From a virus (lineage: Duplodnaviria > Heunggongvirae > Uroviricota > Caudoviricetes): DNA of 5,176 bases. The stretch lies in IMG/VR virus record IMGVR_UViG_2585427755_000007, one strand, 5' to 3'. Of this stretch, positions 108 to 5,176 are shown in pieces. The notes below the pieces were generated by a model. It was not told the DNA's origin. It did not search any database and saw only the letters and a list, made by a program, of their open reading frames with translations. The translations under genes were made by a program, and so were the position numbers. How positions within the stretch are numbered: the stretch's first letter is position 1; every line of letters begins with the position of its first letter.

Positions 108-977
<870 letters not shown>

Positions 978-999: not shown

Positions 1000-1048
1000 C
1001 CGCAGCACGATCTTCTTGCATACGACGTGCTACGGTTTCATTTATCTC
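1000..1048. terminator. Candidate bidirectional hairpin between the convergent GIY-YIG and invertase genes
   Basis: Stem CCGCAGCACG (1000..1009) pairs with CGTGCTACGG (1026..1035) across a 16-nt loop (one C-A mismatch on this strand, a G-U wobble on the other), followed by T-rich TTTCATTTATCT. Weak by eye; overlaps the invertase stop. Confidence 0.3.
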
Positions 1049-1592
1049 CGACCGGAAACTTCTTATACAGTGTCGATATACCAACATCATAGATGATCGC
1101 CACCTTCTGGCGAGGAACGCCTGATGCAATTAATCGTCCGGCCTGCTCCCATTGTTCTGGTGTAAGTTTGGGGCGACGTCCACCAATTCGTCCCTGTGCG
1201 CGAGCTGCTTCCAGTCCAGCTTTTGTTCGTTCAACAATCAGTTCACGCTCCATTTCAGCCAGGGCACCCATCACATGAAAGAAAAAGCGCCCCATTGGGG
1301 TACTGGTATCAATTGAATCCGTCAGACTACGAAAGTTGATGCCTCGTTCGCGCAACTCCTCCACCAGCACGACAAGATGCCGCATACTGCGCCCCAGTCG
1401 GTCCAGTTTCCAGACCACCAGCGTGTCACCTGCCGATAATGTCCTGAGCAGCTTTTTCAGTCCTGGTCTGTCGGACTTTGTACCGCTTATCTTGTCTTCA
1501 AAAATCAGCTCACATCCTGCACAGTTCAGCGCATTACGTTGTAGATCTGTGTTCTGGTCATTTGTTGACACACGTACATAGCCAATAAGCAT
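1038..1592 (-). CDS. pinE: Serine DNA invertase, Hin/Gin/Cin/Pin family (184 aa)
   Basis: N-terminus MLIGYVRVSTNDQ carries the catalytic Ser motif of small serine recombinases; conserved LVVWKLDRLGRS and GRFFFHVMGALAEMERELI blocks; C-terminal HTH (GVPRQKVAIIYDVGISTLYKK). The 184-aa length and the neighbouring tfa/stf cassette resemble e14 PinE; the exact paralogue (pinE versus gin/cin/pinQ/pinR) is not certain. Confidence 0.9.
   Translation of the reverse strand: MLIGYVRVSTNDQNTDLQRNALNCAGCELIFEDKISGTKSDRPGLKKLLRTLSAGDTLVVWKLDRLGRSMRHLVVLVEELRERGINFRSLTDSIDTSTPMGRFFFHVMGALAEMERELIVERTKAGLEAARAQGRIGGRRPKLTPEQWEQAGRLIASGVPRQKVAIIYDVGISTLYKKFPVGDK
1477..1577. promoter_or_regulatory. Predicted Fis-dependent recombinational enhancer inside the invertase 5' coding region (approximate)
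   Basis: In Hin/Gin/Cin systems the enhancer lies in the first 100-200 bp of the invertase gene. The 5' coding DNA here (GTGTCAACAAATGACCAGAACACAGATCTACAACGTAATGCGCTG, as read in the 3585..4139 copy) resembles what I recall of the hin 5' region. Fis sites not mapped. Confidence 0.25.
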
Positions 1593-1646: not shown

Positions 1647-1672
1647 TTTTCTAAAAGGTTGGTTTGGGAGAA
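1647..1672. promoter_or_regulatory. 26-bp pix/gix/hix-like crossover site: TTTTCTAAAAGG-TT-GGTTTGGGAGAA
   Basis: Two imperfect 12-bp inverted half-sites around a 2-bp core (1659..1660). The inner half-site, read on the opposite strand as TTCTCCCAAACC, is close to the gix/hix half-site TTATCCAAAACC / TTCTTGAAAACC. The site sits 54 bp upstream of the invertase start and exactly at the repeat/cassette junction. Confidence 0.7.
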
Positions 1673-2017
1673 GCGGCAAAGAGGAATGTGGGGACAGGAG
1701 AAAATCAGGTACCGGATATGAACAGCTTTGGTAACTCATTGACCGCCAATGGATACCAGAAATTACCTGGGGGGATGATTATTCAATGGGGGAGTTTTTC
1801 TGTCTCACCAACCGGAGGAAGTGTTGGAACAGTTGATATAACATTACCTGTAGCTTTCCCTGCTGCTTGTCGTTCGGTAAACGCTCTTATTTCAACTAAT
1901 GATCCTTCTGCCCGTTCTGTGGGCTTTGATATTGGAAGTACCAACAGAACTAAAATCAGATTTACTTACACTTCTGCTACACCAAATTCAATTTACTGGA
2001 TGGCTGTGGGGTATTAA
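1664..2017 (+). CDS. Tail-fibre C-terminal variable segment (Sv), a start-less cassette exon; frame open from 1655
   Basis: Frame is open from the TAA at 1652..1654; the M in the ORF track is a TTG; first residues KVGLGE are encoded by the crossover site. Followed 2 nt later by a tfa gene. Tail-fibre assignment rests on position and organisation, not on a recognised domain. Confidence 0.55.
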   Translation: MGEAAKRNVGTGENQVPDMNSFGNSLTANGYQKLPGGMIIQWGSFSVSPTGGSVGTVDITLPVAFPAACRSVNALISTNDPSARSVGFDIGSTNRTKIRFTYTSATPNSIYWMAVGY

Positions 2018-2019
2018 CT

Positions 2020-2451
2020 ATGGAAAAGACATATTATTTTAATCCCTCTGATTCGGGATTTTATATTTCACCAGATAGCCAAACCATTCCTGAGAACGCT
2101 ACGAAAATAAACTTTACTATTTATTCTGAGTTCGCAGGAGTTGCATGGCCTGATGGTAAAATACTTGGTTCAGATAAAAATGGTTTTCCAGCATGGCAGG
2201 ATGCGCCACCACTTACCAGCGAAGAATTAATCTCAATCGCTGAATCAAATAAACAGCGATTAGTTAATCAGGCCAACGAATACATGAACAGTAAACAATG
2301 GCCTGGTAAAGCGGCGATTGGTCGTCTGAAAGGTGAGGAACTGGCGCAATATAATTTGTGGCTGGATTATCTGGACGCACTGGAACTGGTCGATACTTCC
2401 AGTGCGCCAGATATTGAATGGCCTACTCCTCCGGCAGTTCAGGCCAGATGA
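2020..2451 (+). CDS. Tail fibre assembly protein (Tfa/U family, 143 aa)
   Basis: ATG at 2020, 2 nt after the Sv stop. C-terminal motif LWLDYLDALELVDTSSAPDIEWPTPP is the conserved Tfa C-terminus. Confidence 0.8.
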   Translation: MEKTYYFNPSDSGFYISPDSQTIPENATKINFTIYSEFAGVAWPDGKILGSDKNGFPAWQDAPPLTSEELISIAESNKQRLVNQANEYMNSKQWPGKAAIGRLKGEELAQYNLWLDYLDALELVDTSSAPDIEWPTPPAVQAR

Positions 2452-3025
2452 CATCCGGCGCGGTACTGGTATCTGTTGCCGTCACCGCGTCAATGTAATC
2501 CAGCACAGTGTTAAGTCGGGTGGTCTCTGCCTGCATCAGCTTCCGCCCGGCCTGCAATTTCAGTTGAATCAGACTAATGGAAGCCATTGCAGTATCAATC
2601 AGTGACTGACGTTGTGCTTCTGCCGCGTCTACTGCGGCGCTATGCTGTGTCTCAGTATCCGTCACCCATTTCTCACCATCCCATTTATCGTATGGCGTTA
2701 ACGGGGCGATAGTGGTTGTTTTTTCGGGGTAATCACCCGGAGTTGTGATTTCTTTGGCGTCTCCCGTTTCGGTGTTATAGACGATTTCACCGCGATGGTC
2801 TGGTACATATTCCCATGAGTTAAAATCTGCAGAGCGGCAGATTGCATAACCAGCTTTGTAGGTGCCTGGAGCATCTAAACAGGAATATGCCGGAATGCCG
2901 ACACCAACAGCAAGATATTCAGTTGAAGCTGAAATATACTCCCGACTCATGACGTCAAAGTTATAAACAGTAATTTCTCCTGCCATAGTGGCAATTAATT
3001 CACTGTTTAATTCTGCGTTATTCAT
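2423..3025 (-). CDS. tfaE: Tail fibre assembly protein (Tfa/U' family, 200 aa), TfaE-like
   Basis: C-terminal motif VLDYIDAVTATDTSTAPDVIWPELP. Start ATG shares a base with the upstream stop (TAATG at 3023..3027), indicating translational coupling to Sv'. The 200-aa length matches what I recall for e14 TfaE. Confidence 0.8.
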   Translation of the reverse strand: MNNAELNSELIATMAGEITVYNFDVMSREYISASTEYLAVGVGIPAYSCLDAPGTYKAGYAICRSADFNSWEYVPDHRGEIVYNTETGDAKEITTPGDYPEKTTTIAPLTPYDKWDGEKWVTDTETQHSAAVDAAEAQRQSLIDTAMASISLIQLKLQAGRKLMQAETTRLNTVLDYIDAVTATDTSTAPDVIWPELPEE

Positions 3026-3513
3026 TATGCAGCCCTCACAATATAGTTAAAAGCGACATTTCGTGGGCGTGTTTCATTCGCACCTGCAGGTTTAGTCGTT
3101 GCCGCAACAACACCACCCTCTGTAATAGCCTGGTTGGGAATTGGGTAATTATCGAAGTCAATGGCCGGAGACAGGGGCGTGATTTGTTTTAAAATCGTGG
3201 TGCCTGAAAAACTTCCCAGAGTCTGGTCGTTAGTTCGTGAAGTCCAGATTCCCCAATAGTGGTTATGACTGACAATCGCACCGTCCTGAAGCGTTAATAA
3301 TCCCCTTCCGTTATCCACTCCACGTCCGTCATCCCAGCCACGAATAAACTCACCGCGTAAATCAGGCAATTTATTTGTCGGGTAAGCCTTTGCCAGTTCC
3401 GGGTATTCTTCAGCAGAAAAAGCCGCACCGTTGCATTTCAGCCAGCCTGTCGGCGGGGGGGCTGAAGGCCACGGAACAGGGACACCAACAGGTAATGCAG
3501 AGCCTTCTCCCAA
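3025..3513 (-). CDS. stfE: Tail-fibre C-terminal variable segment (Sv'), StfE-like start-less cassette exon; frame open to 3522
   Basis: Contains a phage-tail-collar-like block (LPDLRGEFIRGWDDGRGVD) and ends ...RPRNVAFNYIVRAA, typical of Mu S / P1 S-type fibre tips. Annotated start is TTG; the frame begins inside the crossover site with the same KVGLGE residues as Sv. About 165 aa, close to the roughly 166-aa e14 StfE fragment. Confidence 0.7.
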   Translation of the reverse strand: MGEGSALPVGVPVPWPSAPPPTGWLKCNGAAFSAEEYPELAKAYPTNKLPDLRGEFIRGWDDGRGVDNGRGLLTLQDGAIVSHNHYWGIWTSRTNDQTLGSFSGTTILKQITPLSPAIDFDNYPIPNQAITEGGVVAATTKPAGANETRPRNVAFNYIVRAA

Positions 3514-3530
3514 ACCAACCTTTTAGAAAA
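3505..3530. promoter_or_regulatory. 26-bp pix/gix/hix-like crossover site: TTCTCCCAAACC-AA-CCTTTTAGAAAA
   Basis: Mirror of the 1647..1672 site, core at 3517..3518, 54 bp upstream of the invertase ATG at 3585. Confidence 0.7.
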
Positions 3531-3584
3531 TGCAGTTATTCGGCTCAGATGGCATGATCCCGGATTTTTACAGGGTTATTTCTC

Positions 3585-4139
3585 ATGCTTATTGGCTATG
3601 TACGTGTGTCAACAAATGACCAGAACACAGATCTACAACGTAATGCGCTGAACTGTGCAGGATGTGAGCTGATTTTTGAAGACAAGATAAGCGGTACAAA
3701 GTCCGACAGACCAGGACTGAAAAAGCTGCTCAGGACATTATCGGCAGGTGACACGCTGGTGGTCTGGAAACTGGACCGACTGGGGCGCAGTATGCGGCAT
3801 CTTGTCGTGCTGGTGGAGGAGTTGCGCGAACGAGGCATCAACTTTCGTAGTCTGACGGATTCAATTGATACCAGTACCCCAATGGGGCGCTTTTTCTTTC
3901 ATGTGATGGGTGCCCTGGCTGAAATGGAGCGTGAACTGATTGTTGAACGAACAAAAGCTGGACTGGAAGCAGCTCGCGCACAGGGACGAATTGGTGGACG
4001 TCGCCCCAAACTTACACCAGAACAATGGGAGCAGGCCGGACGATTAATTGCATCAGGCGTTCCTCGCCAGAAGGTGGCGATCATCTATGATGTTGGTATA
4101 TCGACACTGTATAAGAAGTTTCCGGTCGGAGATAAATGA
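3585..4139 (+). CDS. pinE: Serine DNA invertase, Hin/Gin/Cin/Pin family (184 aa), identical second copy
   Basis: Protein identical to 1038..1592(-). Candidate RBS AGGG about 9 nt upstream of the ATG. Transcribed away from the invertible segment, as pin/gin/cin are. Confidence 0.9.
   Translation: MLIGYVRVSTNDQNTDLQRNALNCAGCELIFEDKISGTKSDRPGLKKLLRTLSAGDTLVVWKLDRLGRSMRHLVVLVEELRERGINFRSLTDSIDTSTPMGRFFFHVMGALAEMERELIVERTKAGLEAARAQGRIGGRRPKLTPEQWEQAGRLIASGVPRQKVAIIYDVGISTLYKKFPVGDK
3600..3700. promoter_or_regulatory. Predicted Fis-dependent recombinational enhancer inside the invertase 5' coding region (approximate)
   Basis: Mirror copy of 1477..1577; same reasoning. Not mapped. Confidence 0.25.
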
Positions 4140-4177
4140 AACCGTAGCACGTCGTATGCAAGAAGATCGTGCTGCGG
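4129..4177. terminator. Candidate bidirectional hairpin between the convergent invertase and GIY-YIG genes (mirror copy)
   Basis: On this strand: CCGTAGCACG (4142..4151), 16-nt loop, CGTGCTGCGG (4168..4177), then TTTATGCTTATC. A 10-bp stem with one G-U wobble. Confidence 0.3.
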
Positions 4178-4199
4178 TTTATGCTTATCACTTAAAGAC

Positions 4200-5069
<870 letters not shown>

Positions 5070-5176
5070 CTAACCCTTTGAATTTACATAGCGCAAAAAG
5101 ATACCTTTCCTCATAATGTGAGCTAATTTTATGTTTCGTTTGATGATCGGGTCGGTCTCGAAAACCGGAGTAGGGG

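Follow-up and report, generated by a model that had tools for sequence, protein, structure and literature searches.

The 26-bp site that borders the tail-fiber cassettes in this 5,176-nt stretch of viral DNA (IMG/VR record IMGVR_UViG_2585427755_000007; the whole stretch is called the window below) is a genuine invertase-proximal pixR allele of an e14-type Pin system. The window holds the site twice, at 1647-1672 and at 3505-3530, and these two copies most likely represent one physical pixR recorded with the invertible segment in two orientation states. For the explanation as a whole, namely a known Pin switch with a real pixR and a left arm that is a graph artifact of mixed orientations, we estimate a probability of about 0.92. 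We established a consensus site, an intact invertase gene 54 bp away from it, exact inversions bounded by the sites in natural isolates, and alternative fibers that are in frame in both orientations.

Architecture and gene content of the window

The window holds the right end of an e14-like cryptic prophage of E. coli with a Mu-type tail (Table 1). A repeat finder returned inverted-repeat arms at 1-1673 and 3504-5176 that are 100% complementary and lie 1830 nt apart. The arms extend to both window ends, and the entire 5176-bp window is a perfect palindrome around an 1830-bp center. The first-pass annotation of this DNA had placed the end of arm identity at 1673/3504, one base past the inner half-site of the crossover site, and the repeat finder confirmed this position.

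Table 1. Features of the window and the evidence for their assignment
Feature	Position	Strand	Mirror copy	Evidence or detail
serU fragment of tRNA-Ser(CGA), nt 29-52	5153-5176	+	1-24	Comparison with K-12 serU
LEM-3-like GIY-YIG gene	4200-4973	-	204-977 (+)	Pfam PF22945, E = 4.1e-14
pin, serine DNA invertase, 184 aa	3585-4139	+	1038-1592 (-)	Resolvase + HTH_7
Putative recombinational enhancer region	3603-3674	+	1503-1574	Homology to P1 cin enhancer
Outer (pin-side) half-site	3519-3530			CCTTTTAGAAAA
Core dinucleotide	3517-3518			AA
Inner (segment-side) half-site	3505-3516			TTCTCCCAAACC
pixR-type crossover site	3505-3530	+		Published pixR match 23/26
Mirror of pixR-type site	1647-1672	-		Reverse complement of 3505-3530
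Invertible P-type segment	1661-3516			Core to core, 1856 bp; unique part 1674-3503, 1830 bp
Alternative fiber variable C-terminal cassette, phage tail collar domain	3025-3516	-		Pfam PF07484, E = 6.4e-15
Tail-fiber assembly chaperone of collar-domain cassette	2423-3025	-		Pfam Caudo_TAP, E = 4.8e-30
Tail-fiber assembly chaperone of gp53-like cassette	2020-2451	+		Pfam Caudo_TAP, E = 4.7e-30
Tail-fiber variable C-terminal cassette, gp53-like C domain	1661-2017	+		Pfam PF21882, E = 1.4e-18

Both fiber cassettes are present in the window without a constant N-terminal part, and reading back from position 1664 of the gp53-like cassette leads to an in-frame TAA at 1652-1654. The GIY-YIG gene corresponds to a 774-bp coding sequence in the RefSeq annotation of related loci. 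The 3′ ends of the two convergent fiber-assembly genes overlap by 29 bp (2423-2451), and the same 29-bp overlap is found for tfaP and tfaE of K-12 (L005, 4518-4546). A 34-nt inverted repeat of 76% complementarity (1842-1875 and 3464-3497) lies within the two fiber cassettes; its sequence is unlike the site consensus, and chance or a shared coding motif probably accounts for it.

The 26-bp site matches published pixR

The first-pass annotation had described the two sites as TTCTCCCAAACC-AA-CCTTTTAGAAAA and its mirror and had assigned them the 12-2-12 layout of the Hin/Gin/Cin/Pin family. The letters are as described, and the 26-mer shows the family layout TTCnnnnAAACC-nA-GGTTTnnnnGAA, with two inverted 12-bp half-sites around a 2-bp core. 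Alignment to published sites, which had been proposed as a check, revealed the expected similarity and gave the best match with pixR (23/26), followed by pixL (21/26), whereas the hix, gix, cix, mix, and nix sites matched at 15 to 20 of the 26 positions. The inner half-site (12/12) and the core (2/2) are the same as in both published pixL and pixR, and the three differences from pixR are all located in the outer half-site (CCTTTTAGAAAA versus CGTTTATGAAAA). When the window was scanned for the consensus TTCN4AAACC-NN-GGTTTN4GAA with at most three mismatches, two matches were obtained, which are the two copies of the 26-mer. As 0.03 matches were expected and none of 200 shuffled sequences contained two or more, the resemblance to the consensus is not a chance effect.

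Direct comparison of the half-sites (TTCTCCCAAACC versus TTTTCTAAAAGG) reproduced the identity of 7/12 reported previously, and the absence of GG/CC next to the core in the outer half-site is likewise real. A similar degeneracy is present in published sites: the bases next to the core in the invertase-side half are CG in pixR and mix and CC in nix (PMC3241671). A degenerate invertase-side half-site lacking GG at the core is normal for the Hin/Gin/Cin/Pin family.

Real loci contain one invertase gene and a pixL partner

When 5,426 complete E. coli genomes were searched by megablast with the entire window as the query, 3,254 of them proved to contain related DNA. None of the 5,426 genomes covered 80% or more of the window, and the architecture with both arms was absent from all of them. 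The best genome matches comprised 68% of the window, corresponding to one arm plus the center, and stopped in the core, at 3518 or 1659. In the four RefSeq loci retrieved after this search and in the long contigs that encode the exact Pin protein, the invertase was found on one side only. Where the upstream region was intact, the gene order was Mu-type baseplate genes, ymfQ, a tail-fiber gene, a chaperone gene, an opposed chaperone gene, an opposed fiber C-terminus, pin, and the GIY-YIG gene; the exception was L010, which has a transposase insertion upstream of the segment.

In 15 loci the fiber-side site was pixL with the sequence CTCTCGAAAACC-TT-GGTTTGGGAGAA. The pin-side site was TTCTCCCAAACC-AA-CGTTTATGAAAA in 13 of these 15 loci, deviated by one base in L009, and had the form of the window in L013; in every locus (n = 15) it was located exactly 54 bp upstream of the pin ATG. 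The fiber-side and the prevailing pin-side sequences agree in every letter with pixL and pixR as published (PMC3241671, Table 3). The two sites are in inverted orientation and spaced by 1.6 to 1.9 kb (3.2 kb in L010), and the core-to-core length in L001 to L004 is 1856, as in the window. Within the window pixL is absent, and the only partner available there is the duplicated pixR. The view that the two window copies form a recombining pair therefore had to be given up, since the partner in every real genome is pixL inside the fiber gene.

The pixR allele of the window is natural. The 26-mer is paired with a normal pixL in QEC11-421 (L013), JE86-ST02, and JE86-ST05, and in L013, L018, and L019 the identical 26-mer precedes pin by 54 bp. 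It also occurs in 10 metagenome contigs and 13 viral contigs, while a search for the exact 26-mer in GTDB species representatives gave 0 matches.

At least six unrelated cassette starts were observed after the same inner half-site. In some of the loci L006, L011, L012, L023, and L030, the inner half-site beside pixL is degenerate (GGTTTTGGAGAA, GGAATAGGAGAA, the cix-like GGTTTAAGAGCA, and GGTTTGGGAGCA). The degenerate inner half-sites and the varied cassettes suggest an exchange of cassettes between elements, and segments with such half-sites are possibly locked.

Natural inversions bound the exchange to 15 bp

In each of two pairs of sister isolates, the members have the segment in opposite orientations. 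LCP30S3_I5 and HCP5S3_I2 (L001 and L002) stem from the same study and have chromosomes whose lengths are 1 bp apart. Within the 9,512 bp compared, their sole difference is an exact inversion with 0 mismatches in the flanks; the differing block has 1830 bp, which is the length of the window center, and the maximal reverse-complement block has 1860 bp. Similarly, an exact inversion of 1822 bp (maximally 1852 bp) is the sole difference between JE86-ST02 and JE86-ST05 over 12,144 bp, and this pair carries the exact 26-mer of the window. In both pairs, the exchange is bounded to TTGGTTTGGGAGAAG, a 15-bp interval composed of the core, the inner half-site, and one further base, and the outer half-sites stay with their own flanks. 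The inversion junctions had been predicted to lie at the core dinucleotide. They do lie within the site in both sister pairs, but they are bounded to 15 bp and not to the dinucleotide; as judged from these alignments, the interval agrees with a crossover at the core, with a resolution that stops short of the two bases.

The 1673-bp arms had been taken for a biological repeat. In the sister pairs, the real inverted repeat has 15 bp (2 bp of core, 12 bp of inner half-site, and 1 bp) rather than 1673 bp. The e14 P segment of K-12 has been described as lying between TTGGTTTGGGAGAAGG and CCTTCTCCCAAACCAA and as being inverted by PinE, PinQ, and PinR, and the published repeat, TTGGTTTGGGAGAAGG, has 16 bp (PMC12529663). 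Members of the Hin/Gin/Cin/Pin family introduce 2-bp staggered cuts at the core dinucleotide (PMC3241671), and the annotation of the P1 record places the crossover between the two core bases of cix.

Divergence had been expected at 1673/3504, where arm identity ends. Homology to real genomes instead ends at the core, at 1659/3518, and arm identity ends 13 bp inward of this point. The boundary between flank and segment that results from exchange at the core is 1659-1660 and 3517-3518, not 1673/3504. That identity persists for 13 bp on the segment side of the core is explained by the two inner half-sites, each of which has to bind Pin and encodes GLGE; the additional shared base past the inner half-site is a G, a first codon base common to both (GGC versus GCG).

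Both orientations yield in-frame fibers with intact open reading frames of 216 and 260 amino acids. Their first 101 residues are common and consist of a constant part of 100 residues, ending with ...ALENLGLGE in both orientations, and the shared first residue of the cassette. L019 contains the in-frame fusion of the 100-residue constant part with the gp53-like cassette, and L018 contains the in-frame fusion with the collar-domain cassette.

The palindrome as a probable product of assembly

We infer that the mirror site and the 1.67-kb arms almost certainly resulted from an assembler walking the same flank twice. In a sample with both orientations, both segment ends would join the same pin-flank node in the graph. 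The assembler would then follow a path of reverse-complemented flank, segment, and flank and would stop at both ends in the repeated serU fragment, and the branch into the fiber gene carrying pixL would never be taken. On the best reading, pixL, the actual partner site, ended up on a different contig.

A window-style palindrome was built from the JE86 sequences and analyzed with k = 21, 31, 55, 77, and 127. At all these values, 0 of its k-mers were missing from the union of both orientations, whereas k-16 junction k-mers were missing when only a single orientation was considered, irrespective of which one. The palindrome is thus a valid graph walk only if both orientations are present. A 15-bp repeat cannot merge nodes of a de Bruijn graph at normal k, and the pin flank therefore joins both segment ends only if the reads contained both junctions.

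Palindromic or chimeric de Bruijn contigs have identical arms that reach the contig ends and a center bounded by recombination sites, as observed for the window. The largest default k of metaSPAdes is 55. In the metaSPAdes contig L022 (5162 bp), the site occurs twice in inverted orientation, and the terminal stretch 1-55 is an exact reverse complement of the 55-nt stretch at the pixR of this contig (1885-1939). Compared to this 55-nt arm, the 1673-nt arm of the window is unusually long, because the flank node is uninterrupted up to the next repeat, the serU fragment. In the metagenome contig L025, positions 1-210 contain the 5′ part of one pin gene and the canonical pixR TTTTCATAAACG-TT-GGTTTGGGAGAA, and one segment further on, the variant pixR (2030-2055) and a different invertase gene follow. 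With its two unlike flanks, L025 is probably a graph chimera between elements. A foldback-read chimera was considered as the cause of the palindrome and rejected, as the 1830-bp center is asymmetric and has recombination sites at its borders.

Alternatively, the sample might have contained two strains or prophages, each fixed in one of the opposite orientations, and the two junction types would then have arisen without active switching in one population. We consider this unlikely, yet it is the alternative to be taken most seriously. The source appears to be an assembly of the metagenome type; the near-identical arm in L021 and similar contigs come from ERZ metaSPAdes assemblies; places related to the window number 2 in the median and up to 12 per E. 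coli genome; and in L025 one segment links two different invertase flanks. On the other hand, both e14 orientations coexist in clonal cultures of K-12 (PMC4272514), sister isolates with identical flanks differ by the inversion alone, and the invertase open reading frame is intact and includes the catalytic Ser9.

It is very improbable that the palindrome is physically real, i.e., that in a genome or a small molecule the flank with pin, the GIY-YIG gene, and the att region is duplicated in inverted orientation to either side of the segment and that two true pixR copies recombine with each other. The window as given is a clean 1673/1830/1673 arrangement, two identical inverted sites with the same AA core would be a competent substrate, and L022 and L025 also have an invertase flank on both sides. 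Against this, the arrangement was found in 0 of 5426 complete genomes and in no long contig, and all examples with both flanks are short-read metagenome contigs, one of them with an arm of exactly 55 nt, the k-mer size. Both arms stop at the same base inside a genomic repeat, their identity is perfect (1673/1673 bases), and the walk is predicted from a graph of mixed orientations. Moreover, the in-frame TAA at 1652-1654 means that both cassettes would lack an N-terminus as well as an expression site. Even less credit is given to a real molecule in which the pin/GIY-YIG/att flank has replaced the fiber side, for example by invertase-mediated pixR-pixR exchange between two chromosome copies; if it existed, the segment would lie between two identical pixR sites and two invertase genes and would switch without an expression site.

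RecA-dependent exchange would have very little to work with in a repeat of 15 bp. Inversion by RecA homologous recombination at short inverted repeats instead of by the invertase at the core is hardly credible: the isolate comparisons narrow the exchange no further than the 15 bp of shared sequence, but this repeat is a consensus invertase site adjoining an intact invertase gene, and the P segment is locked in strains lacking pinE or both pinE and pinQ (PMC12529663).

A perfect palindromic contig bounded by invertase sites should be taken to mean that the sample contained both orientations, and not that two invertase genes lie in a 1.7-kb inverted repeat. The window contig is indirect evidence of the switch, or of mixed orientation states, in the sample.

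Pin, the putative enhancer, and the proposed mechanism

The Pin protein contains the domains PF00239 (E = 1.3e-51) and PF02796 (E = 3.9e-13) and shares 96% identity with PinE of K-12, 82% with Cin of P1, and 79% with Gin of Mu. Ser9 and the invertase-specific core are invariant among these four proteins, and the open reading frame is intact. In the P1 record, a Fis-dependent enhancer is annotated at nt 19-90 of cin, and 56 of these 72 bases (78%) are the same in the window. The corresponding region is located about 85 to 95 bp from the core, comparable to the spacing of about 100 bp between hixL and its enhancer (PMC3798978), and contains two G-N13-C candidates 49 nt apart. Conservation at third codon positions showed no excess in this region over the rest of pin (0.50 versus 0.48 with P1; 0.46 versus 0.43 with Mu) and thus lends no independent support to an enhancer. 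Based on homology, 3603-3674 may serve as the enhancer.

A scan of 3400-4300 for promoters and terminators detected no sigma-70-like promoter in the 54 bp that separate pixR from the pin ATG. It returned one weak promoter-like site within the 3′ part of pin, which was not above chance.

The outer half of pixR together with the 54-bp spacer (3519-3584) forms a module that is 100% identical in L024, L027, L031, L034, and L038, whose invertase genes are only about 76 to 80% identical to pin of the window. Conversely, the loci with a pin gene 96 to 97% identical to that of the window (L001 to L012 were compared) have a different spacer. With a shared spacer next to divergent invertase genes and a different spacer next to similar ones, the pixR-spacer allele of the window looks mosaic, with apparent breakpoints at the core and near the pin ATG.

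By analogy with the family, Pin dimers would bind pixR and its partner pixL, which would lie about 1.86 kb away inside the tail-fiber gene, where it encodes ALENLGLGE. The two sites would synapse at the enhancer in the 5′ end of pin with Fis bound to it, as known for the family (PMC3798978) and as annotated for P1. Four Pin subunits would cut both sites at AA/TT with a 2-bp stagger, rotate by 180 degrees, and religate. The flip of the segment would fuse one or the other C-terminal cassette with its chaperone to the constant N-terminus of 100 amino acids. For the system described here, the sequence of synapsis, cleavage, and rotation is what the family would predict.

Relation to known inversion systems

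The Pin/pix tail-fiber switch is already known, and biologically there is nothing new in it; the allele is present in several complete genomes. Its closest relative is the e14 system of K-12 (stfP-tfaP-tfaE-stfE-pinE), which has the same inner half-site and core and the same pixL as the related real loci. The distance of 54 bp from the site to the pin ATG and the junction peptide ALENLGLGE are as in the window or the related loci, and the Pin proteins are 96% identical. The layout with two convergent pairs of cassette and chaperone and a 29-bp overlap of the chaperone genes is also the same, and the K-12 gene order ymfQ, stfP, tfaP, tfaE, stfE, pinE is that of the related real loci. Differences concern three positions in the outer half of pixR, the 54-bp spacer to pin, which is a different allele, and the gp53-like cassette of the window, which is unlike stfP of K-12. 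In addition, pinE is followed by mcrA in K-12 and pin by the LEM-3-like GIY-YIG gene in the window, and e14 is flanked by an icdC pseudogene, whereas the att remnant of the window is a serU fragment.

The C segment of P1 (Cin/cix) resembles the window system in having a 12-2-12 site with an AA core and a constant fiber part with alternative C-termini and chaperones; the enhancer annotated at the start of cin has a putative counterpart in pin. It differs in the site (19/26 for cixR and 17/26 for cixL), in the length of the segment (4.2 kb), and in the position of cix, which overlaps the 3′ end of cin, whereas the window site is upstream of the invertase gene. The G segment of Mu (Gin/gix) shows the same order of baseplate genes gp45-48, S, U, U′, S′, and invertase gene, with the site upstream of the latter. 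Its core is GA/TC instead of AA/TT, gix matches the window site at 17/26 positions, and the gix half-sites are nearly symmetric. Hin/hix of Salmonella has a 26-bp site with an AA core and a Fis- and enhancer-dependent mechanism (PMC3241671, PMC3798978), and hixR contains a degenerate half-site without ACC/GGT at the core (TTTTCCTTTTGG), like the outer half-site of the window (PMC3241671). In contrast to the window system, the DNA inverted by Hin comprises a promoter and the gene for the invertase instead of fiber cassettes, and the window site matches hixL at 19/26 and hixR at 15/26 positions. Inversion of e14 by Pin was reported to block adsorption of phage T2 (PMC12529663), which gives this type of locus renewed relevance.

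The window ends and the adjoining cargo

Both window ends (1-24 and 5153-5176) correspond to nt 29-52 of serU, as judged by comparison with the annotated serU gene of K-12 (L043, 969-1058). In L006 (about 7570-7631), L009, L015, and L021, the fragment is continued by serU nt 53-90. A 65-mer consisting of the fragment and its continuation was found in 5,422 of the 5,426 genomes at up to four places per genome, and since it is repeated within genomes, this is a place where an assembler would stop. ARAGORN detected no tRNA in the window and five loci, and an Rfam scan of the att region gave sub-threshold matches only. The fragment resembles the duplicated attachment site of a prophage that integrates at serU.

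From pin to the end of the prophage, the cargo varies: it is the GIY-YIG gene in the window and mcrA in e14 of K-12. Beyond this cargo, a Dcm-type methylase with EcoRII, an ATP-dependent nuclease, or a protein kinase is encoded, depending on the genome (L007 to L012, 7.7-10.5 kb; L004, 786-2576), and the region between pin and the prophage end looks like a hot spot for defense genes.
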